Shown here piece by piece: positions 18,079 through 45,031 of a DNA stretch of 64,000 nt; position 1 is the stretch's first letter, and each line of letters begins with the position of its first letter. Below the pieces are notes generated by a model. The model saw only the letters and a program-made list of their open reading frames with translations, had not been told where the DNA came from and searched no databases. Made by a program: the position numbers and the translations under genes. Source of the stretch: Candidatus Freyarchaeum deiterrae (GTDB taxonomy: Archaea; Asgardarchaeota; Jordiarchaeia; Jordiarchaeales; Jordiarchaeaceae); NCBI GenBank assembly GCA_037305845.1, contig CP147778.1, positions 1,408,001 to 1,472,000 of the forward strand. Reading direction: 5' to 3'.

Positions 18079-18291
18079 TGGTGGGGACGGAGAGATTTCC
18101 AAGGAGAAACAGAGTTTCCCATTTTGAACTCCCGACTAACAGGTTTCTTCAGCTCACTGCTCCAGAAGTTCATCATCTTCTGGTCAGCAAACCTGATTAT
18201 TATCATTGCCTCTGGAGCCTGCCGTGCTTCTTAGCCGAGTTCAGAACAACCAAACTATTGTCCCGAACAACTCTGACTACACTACGTCCCC
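18079..18291 (-). tRNA. tRNA-Trp(CCA) with three BHB introns: 18/19 (18272-18231), 37/38 (18211-18145), 59/60 (18122-18096)
   Basis: Acceptor GGGGACG/CGTCCCC-A-CCA; removing the three introns restores D-loop AGTCAGGAA, anticodon stem GCAGG/CCTGT with loop CTCCAGA, and T-loop TTCAAAT. Confidence 0.92.
18145..18211 (-). ncRNA. Intron-encoded box C/D guide sRNA in tRNA-Trp (predicted Cm34 and Cm39)
   Basis: Box C ATGATAA, D' CTGA, C' ATGATGA, D GTGA; guides CAGGTTT and TCTGGAGC are complementary to the host pre-tRNA with D+5 on C39 and C34. Confidence 0.85.
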
Positions 18292-18544
18292 ACCGAAATG
18301 GGTTAGGCAGCAACACACCAAACATGGTGCGTGTAAAAATGATAAGTGCAAGAATTACATAAAGTTTTTGTTTCCCTCCTCTTTTGCCTCTCAAACCCCG
18401 CACACCTAATTTCAGAACACAAAACCATTACAATAAACCATAAAACATCAAACCAGTAAGCAATAAAAAGCCACAAAAATCAAAAAAGTCCAAAAATAAA
18501 CAAACACACAAAACCGCAAAAAAAACACGAAATTAGGAATGCGG

Positions 18545-18689
18545 CGTCGCTGTTCCGTGTTCGGTAAGAGAACGGGTGATCCCCATGCACTATGACCGGC
18601 ACCGAGGCGCCAGCATTCGGTTTTTCCGCTCCCTCGCGGAGAGCAGTACTCACAGAATCGTACATGAGCTTAACTTTCACGCAGCGACG
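18545..18689 (-). other. BHB processing stem flanking the permuted 5S rRNA
   Basis: Outer helix CGTCGCTG (18689-18682)/CAGCGACG (18552-18545), 4-bp helix CGTG/CACG, 3-nt bulges AAA and GAA. Confidence 0.85.
18554..18675 (-). rRNA. rrf: 5S rRNA, circularly permuted gene (3' half 18675-18606, TC linker, 5' half 18603-18554)
   Basis: Helix I GGTGCCGG/CTGGCGCC, helix II GTGCATGGG/CTCATGTAC, loop C CCGAAC, loop E AGTA and GCGA-capped helix IV are all present but in permuted order. Confidence 0.92.
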
Positions 18690-18713
18690 TCTATCTCTCA
18701 CATAACAAACGGA

Positions 18714-18721
18714 AATATAAA
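18714..18721 (-). promoter_or_regulatory. TATA box for permuted 5S precursor
   Basis: AGAAATG-TTTATATT about 25 nt upstream of the start of the processing stem. Confidence 0.65.
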
Positions 18722-18997
18722 CATTTCTAAGCAATAACAAACAATATACACACCCTCAAACTACAGGCATAAACACAAAAACATCATCATAAAAACACGT
18801 TAAATTACAAAGAAAAAAAACAAGTATGGCCGGTTGAAAACAATAATGATATTCTTATGAAAGTAGTAGCCTTGCAGATACAAATACGACTTAATCCACA
18901 CATCCTCCGCAAAAATTAACCAACTAGAGACAGCGTTCAACAAATGAACAGAAAAATTTATATTTTAAAGTTAATTCTAATCAAACACACAGAATGC

Positions 18998-19132
18998 GCC
19001 CAAGTGGTGTAGCCCGGTCTATCATCGCGGCCTGTCACGTCGTGGACACAAAAACGATGGTTTAGTGGCGGGAACCCGAGGCCAAAAAACAAAGGTTTTA
19101 TGGCGGGAATTCAAATCTCGGCTTGGGCGCCA
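18998..19132 (+). tRNA. tRNA-Asp(GTC) with two BHB introns: 45/46 (19046-19073) and 53/54 (19081-19109)
   Basis: Acceptor GCCCAAG/CTTGGGC-G-CCA; anticodon GTC 19034-19036; BHB helices TCGT/GCGG and CCCG/CGGG with 3-nt bulges; upstream TTTATATT at 18957. Confidence 0.92.
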
Positions 19133-19331: not shown

Positions 19332-19497
19332 GGGCCGTTAGCTCAGGGGCGCAACGAAACCGTTGAACCGAGAAATTAGGTAGAGCGTCTGACTTCGGTG
19401 GACTTCCCCCCGAAGGGTGAAGCTTTTAACCAGGCGGTCGCGGGAAGCTTCTGAAACTTATCGGGGCTCGCGAATTCAAATCCTGCACGGCCCGCCA
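19332..19497 (+). tRNA. tRNA-Lys(TTT) with three BHB introns: 15/16 (19347-19375), 30/31 (19392-19421), 53/54 (19445-19474)
   Basis: Acceptor GGGCCGT/ACGGCCC-G-CCA; anticodon TTT 19425-19427; splicing restores GCTC-AGTTAGGTA-GAGC, TCTGG/CCAGG and GCGGG-TTCAAAT-CCTGC. Confidence 0.92.
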
Positions 19498-19690
19498 AAA
19501 CTCATTCAGATTTTCTGTATTGAAAATTGAATGTTTTAGGTTGAAAAATTTGAGAGTTGTATGATAGAATAAGAATATAAAGTGCTTTGTTTTAGTTTTT
19601 CATTGTTGTTAGTTTCTTGTAGTCGCGTGGGATGGTTTAAAACAGATTTATAGTTTGTTTGTGATTGGTTGATTCCTAGAAGTGGTTGTT

Positions 19691-22600
19691 ATGTCTAATG
19701 GTGAACAGTTGGATAATTGGCGTATTGTGGAAGCTTTCATCGAGGAAAATGGTCTGGTTCGGCAGCACCTAGATTCTTATGACGAGTTTATTAGACATGG
19801 ACTGCAGCAGGTAGTAGACGAGATTGCAGCCATTGAGCCGGAAGGAGAGAATTACTACGTTAGGCTGGGTAAAATTGAGATAGGGAAGCCTACAGTGAAA
19901 GAGGCTGACGGCTCAACCATGCCGGTTTTTCCCAACGAGGCCCGCATCCGTAACCTGACATATGCCTCAAACCTTCACTTGGAGATGGCTATAGTTTATA
20001 GTGACGAACGGGGAGGAGATACTGAAGAAGCCCCAGTTGAGGTTTACATAGGCAGAATTCCAATCATGTTAAAATCCGAAAAGTGTCCCCTTTCCCAGTT
20101 GAGCAGGGAGGAACTCATAACTCTGGGAGAGGATCCCGATGACCCGGGAGGCTACTTTATTATAAATGGAAGTGAGAGGGTTCTGGTCACTCAGGAAGAC
20201 CTCGCCCCTAACCGTATCCTTATTGAGGAGGCTAATAAGAGCAGTTCATCCACCCACGTTGCTAAAGTTTTTAGCACAGCTCAAGGTTTCCGAGCCCCAG
20301 TAACTATGGAGCGACGACGAGACGGCTCCCTCAGGATTTCTTTCCCCTCGGTTCCCGGAAAGATTCCGCTAGTAGTTTTAATGCGCGCCCTCGGGCTGGA
20401 GAGTGATAAACAGATCGCCGAGGCGATTTCCGATGAGGATGAGATTGTCCGCGAATTAATTCCCTCAATTGAGGCGGCGTCTACAATTATCTCCCGTGAC
20501 GAGTCACTTGACTACGTTGGCAAGCGTGTCGCCGTGGGTCAGACCAGAGACTACCGCCTGAAGAGAGCGGAACAGGTTCTGGACCGGTACCTTCTCCCAC
20601 ACATCGGTACTGACGCTAAGGACCGGTTAAGAAAAGCGTTCTACCTGGGCCAGATGGCTTCGCATATTATTGAGTTGGCTCTCGGCAAGAGAACCGAGGA
20701 TGATAAGGACCATTACGCTAATAAGAGATTGAAGCTCGCCGGTGACCTGCTGATGAGCTTGTTCCGGGTGGCTTTCCTCAGCCTCTGCAGAGACATTAAA
20801 TACCAGCTTGAGAGAAACGCCGTCAGAGGCAGACGGAGAAACATCAAGACTGCAGTTCGTGCAGACGTAATTACAGACCGCTTACATCACGCGCTCGCAA
20901 CAGGAAACTGGGTAGGCGGCAAAGCCGGAGTAAGCCAGCTTCTAGACAGAACCAATTATATGTCCGCCCTCAGCCACCTCAGAAGAGTCGTTTCTCCCTT
21001 GAGCAGAAGCCAGCCTCACTTCGAAGCTCGAGACCTGCACCCCACCCACTGGGGCAAAATCTGCCCTAACGAGACACCAGAAGGACCTAACTGTGGACTA
21101 GTTAAAAACCTAGCGCTCCTAGCTTACATATCCGTAGGCGCAGACGAAAAGGAGATTGAAAGCGTCTTCGTGGATCTAGGTGTGCAACCCATAGAAGAGA
21201 TAAAGAGAGAGAAGGGAGCCAAAGGCGCCCAAGTCTACGTCAACGGTCGACTGATAGGAGTACACATGCAACCTCTAGTCCTCGTAGCGGAAGTAAAGAA
21301 GCGGAGGAGAAGCGGCCAAATAAACAATGAGGTAAACATCGCCTACTACTCCGACACTAACGAGATACAGACCAACTGCGACCAAGGACGAGCAAGACGC
21401 CCCCTAATAATAGTGGAAAACAAGACCACCAAATACACCACAGAACACGCGACAAAACTCAGAAGCAAGGAATGGAAGTTCAGCGACCTAATACGCAGAG
21501 GAATAGTGGAATTCCTAGACGCAGAAGAAGAAGAAAACACCCACATAGCAATGACCCCACCGGACATAAACGAGAAAACCACCCACATAGAAATCGCGCC
21601 CACTTCAATCCTTGGAATATCTGCATCCATAATACCCTACCCCGAACACAACCAAAGCCCAAGAAACACTTATGAAGCTGGAATGGTAAAACAAGCCCTC
21701 GGATTATTCGCAGCCAACTACCGAACAAGAGCAGACACACGCGCCCATCTACTCCACTACCCACAAACCCCAATGGTGAACACAAAATCAACCACACCCA
21801 CAGGATTCGACAAAAGACCTGCAGGACAAAACTTCATAGTAGCAGTAATATCCTACGAAGGATACAACATAGAAGACGCCATAATAATAAACCAAGCCTC
21901 CATACAACGCGGACTAGGAAGATCAACCTTCTTCAGAAGCTACGAAGCTGAAGAAAGGAAATACCCCGGAGGACAAGAAGATAAATTCGAAATACCCGAC
22001 CGCAGCGTCAGAGGATACCGCGCCGCAGAAGCCTACCGCCACCTATCCGACGACGGAATAATCGAACCCGAAGTCGAAGTCCTAGGCGGAGAAATAATAA
22101 TAGGAAGAACAAGCCCCCCAAGATTCCTAGAAGAAAACGCAGGCTTCGAACTACCCACCCAAACCCGAAGAGAAACCTCAACCAGCATGCGACACGGAGA
22201 ACTAGGAACCGTAGACACAGTAAGCGTAACCGAAACCATAGACGGAAACAGACTAGTCAAAGTCAAAATCAGAGACCTAAGAATACCCGAACTAGGCGAT
22301 AAATTCGCAACACGCCACGGACAAAAAGGAATAATCGGACTAATAGTACCCCAAGAAGACCTACCCTTCACAGAAGACGGCGTAGTCCCAGACCTCATAG
22401 TCAACCCACATGCAGTACCATCACGAATGACCATAGGACAAATAATAGAATCCATAGCCGGAAAAGTAGGCGCACTCAGCGGAAGAAGAATAGACGGCAC
22501 AGCGTTCAGCGGCGAACCACTAAAAGACCTATACAAAGAACTGACCAGCAGAGGCTTCAAACACAACGGTAGAGAAGTAATGTACAACGGAATAACCGGA

Positions 22601-23032
22601 AGAAAATACGAAGCAGACATATTCATAGGAGTCGTATACTACCAAAAACTACACCACATGGTATCAGACAAAATCCACGCCAGAGCCAGAGGACCAGTAC
22701 AAATACTAACAAGACAACCGACAGAAGGACGAGCCAGAGAAGGCGGACTCAGATTCGGAGAAATGGAAAGAGACTGCCTCATAGGCCACGGAAGTGCGCT
22801 AATTTTGAAGGAGAAGCTTGTCGATGAGAGTGATAAGACTACTTCTCTTGTTTGTGAGGATTGTGGTATGCTCGCCGTGTACGATAAGAATAAGGGTCGT
22901 TACTATTGTCCGCTTTGTGGTGAGGATATTCGGGTTTCCAAGGTTAACATGAGCTACGCCTTCAAACTGTTGTTGCAGGAGCTTATGGCTTTGGGTATTG
23001 CTCCGCGTCTTAAGCTTGCGGAGAAAACTTGA
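19691..23032 (+). CDS. rpoB: DNA-directed RNA polymerase subunit B (unsplit Rpo2)
   Basis: GGYFIINGSERV, ETPEGPNCGL, GDKFATRHGQKG, QKLHHMV, GGLRFGEMERD. Confidence 0.98.
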   Translation: MSNGEQLDNWRIVEAFIEENGLVRQHLDSYDEFIRHGLQQVVDEIAAIEPEGENYYVRLGKIEIGKPTVKEADGSTMPVFPNEARIRNLTYASNLHLEMAIVYSDERGGDTEEAPVEVYIGRIPIMLKSEKCPLSQLSREELITLGEDPDDPGGYFIINGSERVLVTQEDLAPNRILIEEANKSSSSTHVAKVFSTAQGFRAPVTMERRRDGSLRISFPSVPGKIPLVVLMRALGLESDKQIAEAISDEDEIVRELIPSIEAASTIISRDESLDYVGKRVAVGQTRDYRLKRAEQVLDRYLLPHIGTDAKDRLRKAFYLGQMASHIIELALGKRTEDDKDHYANKRLKLAGDLLMSLFRVAFLSLCRDIKYQLERNAVRGRRRNIKTAVRADVITDRLHHALATGNWVGGKAGVSQLLDRTNYMSALSHLRRVVSPLSRSQPHFEARDLHPTHWGKICPNETPEGPNCGLVKNLALLAYISVGADEKEIESVFVDLGVQPIEEIKREKGAKGAQVYVNGRLIGVHMQPLVLVAEVKKRRRSGQINNEVNIAYYSDTNEIQTNCDQGRARRPLIIVENKTTKYTTEHATKLRSKEWKFSDLIRRGIVEFLDAEEEENTHIAMTPPDINEKTTHIEIAPTSILGISASIIPYPEHNQSPRNTYEAGMVKQALGLFAANYRTRADTRAHLLHYPQTPMVNTKSTTPTGFDKRPAGQNFIVAVISYEGYNIEDAIIINQASIQRGLGRSTFFRSYEAEERKYPGGQEDKFEIPDRSVRGYRAAEAYRHLSDDGIIEPEVEVLGGEIIIGRTSPPRFLEENAGFELPTQTRRETSTSMRHGELGTVDTVSVTETIDGNRLVKVKIRDLRIPELGDKFATRHGQKGIIGLIVPQEDLPFTEDGVVPDLIVNPHAVPSRMTIGQIIESIAGKVGALSGRRIDGTAFSGEPLKDLYKELTSRGFKHNGREVMYNGITGRKYEADIFIGVVYYQKLHHMVSDKIHARARGPVQILTRQPTEGRAREGGLRFGEMERDCLIGHGSALILKEKLVDESDKTTSLVCEDCGMLAVYDKNKGRYYCPLCGEDIRVSKVNMSYAFKLLLQELMALGIAPRLKLAEKT

Positions 23033-43544: not shown

Positions 43545-45031
43545 TTACCCCTTTACAACACCAAGAGGACGCAAACGTGCAACCATAGACGCTATCCCCG
43601 CATCATGCGAAGCTTGCACCACTTCATCAACATTCTTGTAAGCCTCTGGGGCTTCCTCACTCACAACTTGAGCACTAGCCGCCCTAACAAAAATCCCCTT
43701 CGACAAGAGTTTGCTTTTCACACCCTCACCTGAAAAGCTCTTAATCGCCTGAGTCCTACTCATCACACGGCCGGCACCATGTGCGGTGGAGCCGAAACTA
43801 AGCTCCATTGCTTCTTTTCGTCCTCTAAGTATGTAGCTGGCGGTTCCCATGGTTCCAGGTATTATCACCGGCTGACCTATGCTTCTATATTTTTGTGGAA
43901 CTTCTGGATGGTCTGGCGGAAAGGCGCGTGTGGCTCCTTTTCTGTGTACATAAACAGAGTGAGTCTCACCGTTAACCTTGTGCTTTTCTATCTTTGCTAT
44001 GTTATGCGCCACATCGTAAATCAGATGCATATCAAGATCTTCAGCTGACCTTCCAAATACGTTTTGAAAGGATTCTCGTATCCAGTGTGTTATACTCTGT
44101 CTATTTGCCCAGGCGAAATTCGCGGAGGCAGCCATAGCCGCTAAGTAGTCTTGTCCCTCAGGACTGTTTCCAGGAGCGGCTGCTAGTTCTCTATCGGGTA
44201 AATTAATTCCGTATTTTCTTGAGGCGTTTTCCATGATTCGTAGATAGTCAGAGCAGACTTGATGTCCTAGACCCCGTGAACCCGTGTGAACCATTACGGT
44301 AACCTGATTCTCACTTAATCCTAAGACCTTGGCTGCGTCTTGATCAAAAATTTTCTCTACGTATTGAATCTCGAGAAAATGATTACCTGCCCCTAATGTT
44401 CCCACTTGGGCAACCCCTCTCTCCTTTGCTTTGCTTGACACTTTTGAAGTGTTCGCTCCCTCCAATTTTCCATTCGCTTCGCAGTTTAAAGCGTCCTCTT
44501 CCCATCCGAAACCGTTTTTAATAGACCAGCTAACGCCCTCGGAAAGAATTCCGTCCAAGTCTCTAGCTGAGAGTTTAATTTTTCTCTTAGATCCCAAACC
44601 ACTAGGCACATTATCAAACATTTCTTTTGTTAACTCTTTTATCTTGGATTCAGCGTCCTTCCTCTCAAGATTGGTTTTAATCACTCTAACACCGCAATTG
44701 ATATCATACCCAACCCCGCCGGGACTTACAACTCCGTTGTCCTCAATATCAGTAGCGGCTACTCCGCCTATTGGAAAACCGTAGCCCTGATGAGCTTCCC
44801 TCAGTAGAGGACATCCTCTCCTGAATCGGGCAGGGTTACGGAGAATTTTTTTATGCCTGGCAGGCTGCATACGTTAACGGCTTGGATTAGAGTTTGATCC
44901 TTATAAATATCTTTAAGCAATACCTCGTTTGCAATAATTCTGGCTGGAACCCTCATGTAGGGTCGATAATCTTTAGGAATCTCCCAAATGTTTTTATTAA
45001 TCTGCTTAAGAGGAATATTTCTTGTACTCAA
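43545..45031 (-). CDS. rtcB: RNA-splicing ligase RtcB, join(45031-44825,44795-43545), about 485 aa after intron removal
   Basis: Exon 1 ends ..NVCSLPGI...TLPD; exon 2 begins [11 protein letters not shown] and holds [49 protein letters not shown]; GAGGTGA SD before TTG 45031. Confidence 0.92.
44796..44824 (-). other. 29-nt BHB-type mRNA intron in rtcB
   Basis: TCAGGAGAGGATGTCCTCTACTGAGGGAA; exact removal gives PD^AHQGYG; helix CCCG/AGGG, bulges AT^T and AA^G, internal hairpin CAG..AGAGG-ATGT-CCTCT..CTG. Confidence 0.85.

Follow-up and report, generated by a model that had tools for sequence, protein, structure and literature searches.

The 5S rRNA gene of Candidatus Freyarchaeum deiterrae is circularly permuted, a reading that is virtually certain: at 18689-18545 on the minus strand of the window (the whole 64,000-nucleotide stretch of DNA analysed here), the 3' half of the molecule is encoded before the 5' half. 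With high confidence, RNA from this locus is spliced to a ring of 122 nt. The permuted locus is also probably the organism's working 5S gene, with the spliced ring as the mature ribosomal RNA.

Both halves lie in one transcription unit on the minus strand, as do all features of the locus described here. A putative TATA box, TTTATATT (18721-18714), with a purine-rich BRE-like stretch before it, ends 25 nt short of the outer stem, in agreement with the distance given in an earlier note on this DNA. Among the first 30 permuted loci inspected, 16 have a TT[TA]A[TA]A box that precedes the 5S 3' half by 45-54 nt. The leader (18689-18682) and the trailer (18552-18545) are the arms of an outer processing stem, identified by pairing and covariation, in which 8 of 8 positions pair. 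Inside this stem CGTG (18681-18678), invariant in homologues that share the cut register of this locus, pairs at 4 of 4 positions with CACG (18559-18556), which the mature RNA uses in helix III. Two 3-nt bulges at the new ends of the molecule complete the motif: AA^A (18677-18675), with a predicted cut at 18676/18675, and GA^A (18555-18553), with a predicted cut at 18554/18553. A run of eight T (18525-18518) is a probable archaeal terminator.

Between the bulges, the 3' half (18675-18607) comprises the 3' strands of helices III and II, domain γ and the 3' strand of helix I, and the 5' half (18602-18554) the 5' strand of helix I, loop A, the 5' strands of helices II and III, and loop C. The helix I 3' strand (18614-18607) pairs with 18602-18595, and in the fold the usual 3' and 5' ends of this helix are joined by a CUCG tetraloop (18606-18603). 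The permuted order and the BHB-type flanks claimed in the earlier note are thus as it described them, and so is the CTCG-capped hairpin; its linker of "only TC" is instead a 4-nt loop on an 8-bp helix I. The register of the BHB was right too, with a refinement of its type: no Watson-Crick pairing adjoins the second bulge on its inner side, so the motif is a relaxed BHB and not a strict one. Its computed fold lies 1.1 kcal/mol above the minimum-energy fold, with a central-helix probability of about 0.18. Since the central helix takes up the CACG of mature helix III, the precursor and product folds are mutually exclusive. When each bulge is cut behind its second base and the ends are joined, the product has 122 nt, 18675-18554, and the conserved loop C/helix III motif is restored; the RF00001 alignment shows that the ends meet within the two-A bulge of helix III. 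This product, which the earlier note had derived from the EndA rule, was confirmed both by re-permutation and by the joint found in RNA.

The identity of the locus was examined with an nhmmer profile built from 8 collinear Asgard 5S genes. The native sequence gives two matches in reversed order, model positions 46-117 (the 3' half, 34.9 bits) upstream of positions 3-50 (the 5' half, 27.5 bits), and the re-permuted sequence gives one full match (positions 3-117, 75.9 bits) that aligns to collinear Asgard 5S without gaps. The predicted join scored best of 49 joins tried, tied only with two registers of identical letters. The re-permuted RNA is a full-length 5S that folds with helix I and domains β and γ. 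With a covariance model built from 19 permuted 5S genes of other genera, the locus is a single match at 18543-18691 (104.1 bits, E 6e-28), and no collinear 5S gene exceeds 38 bits. Rfam model RF00001 has no match anywhere in the window at its gathering threshold; on the native locus it gives one sub-threshold match of 17.3 bits (cut-off 38), covering the 5' half only, where the earlier note had expected two partial matches in reversed order. Such a score is expected because the gene is permuted.

The host genome, a single contig of 3,576,204 bases (40.7% GC) rated 100% complete, has no collinear or second 5S gene in a search of its whole length with RF00001 and two HMMs, and none was found downstream of its 23S gene. 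The normal collinear gene that the earlier note had named as a possible refutation is therefore not found in this genome. Motifs of 16S and 23S rRNA lie about 30 kb apart in the genome (1805462-1806506 and about 1836144-1839900), neither linked to the 5S. The surroundings of the locus include, by eye, multi-intron genes for tRNA-Trp (18079-18291, minus strand), tRNA-Asp (18998-19132, plus strand) and tRNA-Lys (19332-19497, plus strand), all three of which ARAGORN missed. A fused RNA polymerase B gene at 19682-23032 gives an archaeal gene context.

RNA evidence comes from contigs of public runs aligned to 18400-18900, the RNA being that of relatives that differ from the window at 2-5 bases. Three metatranscriptomes from different studies, X11 (soil) and X15 and X16 (peat), contain a back-joint from 18674 to 18553 that goes back 122 bases; its 2-letter ambiguity includes the predicted joint of 18675 to 18554, and 33-49 letters lie on the short side of the joint. 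In the RNA of close relatives, then, a ligated junction is present at the predicted site, as the earlier note had anticipated, and DNA run X6 has no such back-joint. RNA cover extends over 18553-18674 only: it begins and ends at the cut sites, shows no loose ends and never reaches into the trailer. Both the joint and the tetraloop are crossed by the X16 contig of 152 nt, which equals 122 nt plus a 30-nt overlap, and by the X11 contig of 151 nt. A contig of 152 nt is what such an assembly makes of a closed circle, and an end repeat of 2 nt would not suffice to create an assembly cycle. If a relative had a collinear gene, the joint would be accounted for, but the unbroken run through the tetraloop would not. 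In X15 and X16 a G>A change at 18606 (plus strand) replaces the CUCG tetraloop with UUCG. As assembled contigs, the RNA data carry no information on levels, strand or ends, and a mixture of molecules cut and left unligated with molecules ligated and re-opened could yield the same assembly cycle.

An artefact of assembly, or a pseudogene with the true gene collinear or elsewhere, is a reading to which we give almost no weight. Nothing was found in its favour beyond the failure of Rfam to call the gene at 17.3 bits. The permuted order is supported by a contig of DNA run X6 that matches the window over 18457-18900 with zero differences; all sampled words of the locus also occur in five further DNA runs, which may be the assembly's own source. 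The same order is present in 4 of 5 congeneric genomes, and a score of at least 60 bits with the permuted covariance model was obtained for 83 of the 151 Asgard genomes that are at least 90% complete, a count that shows the spread of the layout and not its number of origins, since kin are not independent. The outer stem moreover covaries among these genes.

A pattern scan of all species genomes placed permuted genes in records of Jordarchaeia, Freyarchaeota, Baldrarchaeota, Njordarchaeota, Hodarchaeota, Heimdallarchaeota and Promethearchaeota. Ten bacterial matches of the same pattern were collinear 5S genes or chance and were rejected. In a set of 41 genomes, 8 have a normal 5S over the cut-off, many others have two adjacent sub-threshold matches, and none has both. 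The permuted model scores at most 38 in the 40 genomes of the family whose neighbouring gene carries a Thorarchaeota name. Both states occur in genomes of the Lokiarchaeia type: the 5S genes of two single-contig ones (6.0 and 4.3 Mb) are collinear, and a related large family is permuted. A pattern search of five Loki-type genomes gave chance matches only. The collinear 5S of three families has a DUF1512 gene as its neighbour, and so has the permuted gene of Baldrarchaeia; this shared neighbour places the permuted gene at an orthologous position. Two further loci appear to be permuted 5S genes opened elsewhere, one on the 5' side of loop C (L173:1500-1680, plus strand) and one inside the 3' half (L174:1430-1600, minus-strand reading), which suggests repeated shifts or origins.

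Over 80 homologous loci the central helix has 4 of 4 pairs in 67 and 3 of 4 in 13, its register rebuilds the conserved motif, and the predicted circles range from 115 to 131 nt. Two main cut registers occur, one base apart: A (GA^A, as at the window locus) and B (GAA^G). In register A (10 genes) pairing in the outer stem reaches 98.9%, with 27 double-sided changes, and in register B (19 genes) 94.1%, with 73 such changes, which makes 100 in total among divergent sequences. Control stems with the arms slid were 20-58% paired, and arm swaps averaged 74% (A) and 49% (B). The low outer-stem score of register A in the 80-locus count comes from genes with a nested intron. Covariation of the flanking stem in relatives, proposed in the earlier note as a check, is thus evident from compensatory changes and from 94-99% pairing.

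The linkers that close helix I bear on the fate of the ring. Ordinary RNA libraries under-sample linear RNA of 120 nt and favour rings, and the contigs cannot show ends, so the ring could be an intermediate: as with permuted tRNAs, it would be opened again in or close to the tetraloop, yielding a linear 5S of the normal kind. Permuted tRNA genes are expressed via a circular intermediate, and those of Thermofilum have predicted intervening sequences of 1 and 7 nt (PMC3218864), so that a short linker does not by itself exclude re-opening, for which the earlier note had seen little room with 2 nt. However, the RNA contigs, which show neither ends nor levels, cross the tetraloop without precursor flanks. 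In addition, among 68 genes scored, the linkers are 3-4-nt loops in 64 and 4-nt loops in 51; these are stable caps (UUCG, UACG, UGCG, CUCG and others) with no common sequence, and no tRNA-like element for RNase P or RNase Z was found in them. An engineered 5S in which a 4-nt connector links the native ends is tolerated in Escherichia coli (PMC7283268), and the structure therefore does not require opening. Re-opening is an unlikely but appreciable alternative; the ring probably stays closed and is likely to be the form present in ribosomes.

The splice site of the permuted gene is also used by introns. A collinear 5S with a 22-32-nt BHB intron at the exact register-A site occurs in 15 metagenome contigs and one bin. 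Most of these genes adjoin a split RNA polymerase B, and cluster names for that group are Aenigmarchaeota; three belong to another archaeal type. The copy in the bin, on a 9-kb contig (G053:C117) in an Asgard bin, was considered as an Asgard intermediate and rejected: it is probably misbinned, since it has split RNA polymerase B neighbours and the corresponding cluster at a sister locus bears the name Aenigmarchaeota. A literature search for 5S introns in Aenigmarchaeota-type groups found no report. In permuted genes of the Heimdallarchaeum and Atabeyarchaeia type a 29-31-nt hairpin intron is nested at the junction, so that two successive rounds of splicing are needed.

These introns also weigh on the view that the RNA is cut at the bulges, stays mostly unligated and works as a linear permuted 5S, with rings as a minor by-product. 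A linear permuted 5S does exist in brown-algal mitochondria (PMC4267664), and low-level 5S circles, read as possible steps of degradation, are known from other archaea (PMC3326292, PMC12558985). Yet the collinear introns at the same site must be ligated, the break in an unligated RNA would sit in the conserved helix III bulge, and the joint is single, precise, identical in three studies and rebuilds a conserved motif. We consider the unligated form very improbable; the spliced ring is the reading preferred here. As to origin, the introns would fit a route in which a collinear 5S interrupted by a BHB intron in helix III gave rise to the permuted layout, intron first, as proposed for SRP RNA (PMC4731332). 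Convergent use of a ready-made half-site is a possible alternative.

The enzymes presumed to carry out the reaction are encoded by the host. Two EndA-family proteins are encoded outside the window: a catalytic-type subunit closest to Aeropyrum-type solved structures (3p1z, 3ajv) and a second protein without the histidine motif. Two EndA types fit a heterotetrameric endonuclease, the kind most relaxed in its choice of substrate (PMC4731332). The presumed ligase, RtcB (43548-44798, minus strand; PF01139 match of 571 bits), is encoded about 25 kb from the permuted 5S, and genes for uL18 and uL5 are present in the genome. Under the proposed scenario, the gene would be transcribed in permuted order from its TATA box as a short transcript of its own. 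The leader and trailer would pair into the outer stem, and the leader CGUG would take the CACG of helix III, forming the relaxed BHB. The tRNA-splicing endonuclease would cut both bulges and RtcB would join the ends within the two-A bulge of helix III. Helix III could then form, giving the normal 5S fold with its usual ends sealed by the tetraloop, and the 122-nt ring would be loaded as mature 5S with uL5 and uL18 into the large subunit.

The nearest parallel is the SRP RNA of Thermoproteus tenax (Plagens et al. 2015, PMC4731332). That gene, too, has a swapped order, its own TATA promoter and a short leader; a BHB forms between its leader and its trailer, a conserved element is regained on ligation, and the circle is the mature form, as proposed here for the 5S ring. 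Its host likewise has very many tRNA introns and an endonuclease of the two-subunit type; in the complete 3.58-Mbp Freyarchaeum genome nearly all tRNAs have introns (PMC11291895). Unlike the SRP RNA gene, the 5S locus encodes a ribosomal RNA and is found in many families of a phylum, not one genus, and EndA cleavage of its precursor is predicted from sequence. Permuted tRNA genes of Thermofilum pendens and Cyanidioschyzon merolae similarly have the 3' half upstream, a BHB at the new ends, a circular product and sometimes an extra intron (PMC3218864, PMC3978253); a tRNA must be re-opened to expose its acceptor end, whereas 5S needs no such end and its linker is a stable tetraloop.

Other rRNAs share some of these features. 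The earlier note knew of no genomically permuted 5S gene, but brown-algal mitochondria have one, mtPerm-5S (Valach et al. 2014, PMC4267664), in which helix I is likewise closed by a hairpin. Its ends lie at the α/γ junction and its product is linear, unspliced and stays permuted, whereas the ends of the Asgard locus are ligated and map to the helix III bulge, within a BHB. Archaeal 16S and 23S rRNAs are also circularised in a BHB-dependent manner, and circular 23S rRNA has been reported in ribosomes (PMC7758197, PMC12918454); in those cases the gene is collinear and the circle is closed through flanking spacer, whereas ligation of the 5S builds its conserved core. Processing by circularisation has been said to apply to 16S and 23S "but not 5S" (PMC12918454). 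Circular 5S sequences do appear in RNA-seq of Sulfolobus and Halobacterium (PMC3326292, PMC12558985), from collinear genes, at low level, with heterogeneous ends and possibly through degradation, in contrast to the single genome-encoded junction described here. A literature search for circular 5S in archaea with this class of gene found no report, most subscription journals lying outside the search.

The 5S of cellular ribosomes is generally treated as a linear, collinearly encoded molecule. The joined 122-nt RNA in close relatives implies that ribosomes with a circular 5S are probably built, and as ligation is needed to make the conserved 5S core, ribosome assembly would depend on EndA and RtcB. 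More broadly, we lean with modest confidence towards the view that in most Asgard lineages, including those of the Hodarchaeales and Heimdallarchaeum type, 5S is encoded only in permuted form and translation runs with a closed 5S made by the tRNA-splicing machinery, with an intron-first origin suggested by the Aenigmarchaeota-type and nested introns. Prediction of 5S had failed for two circular Heimdallarchaeum genomes (PMC8813620); the scan found two permuted copies in each, which close this published gap. The rRNA annotation and quality calls of metagenome-assembled genomes are affected across Asgard archaea. With Hodarchaeales-type genes permuted, and those of Thorarchaeia and some Lokiarchaeia collinear, the finding is relevant to which form of 5S the archaeal ancestor of eukaryotes had.
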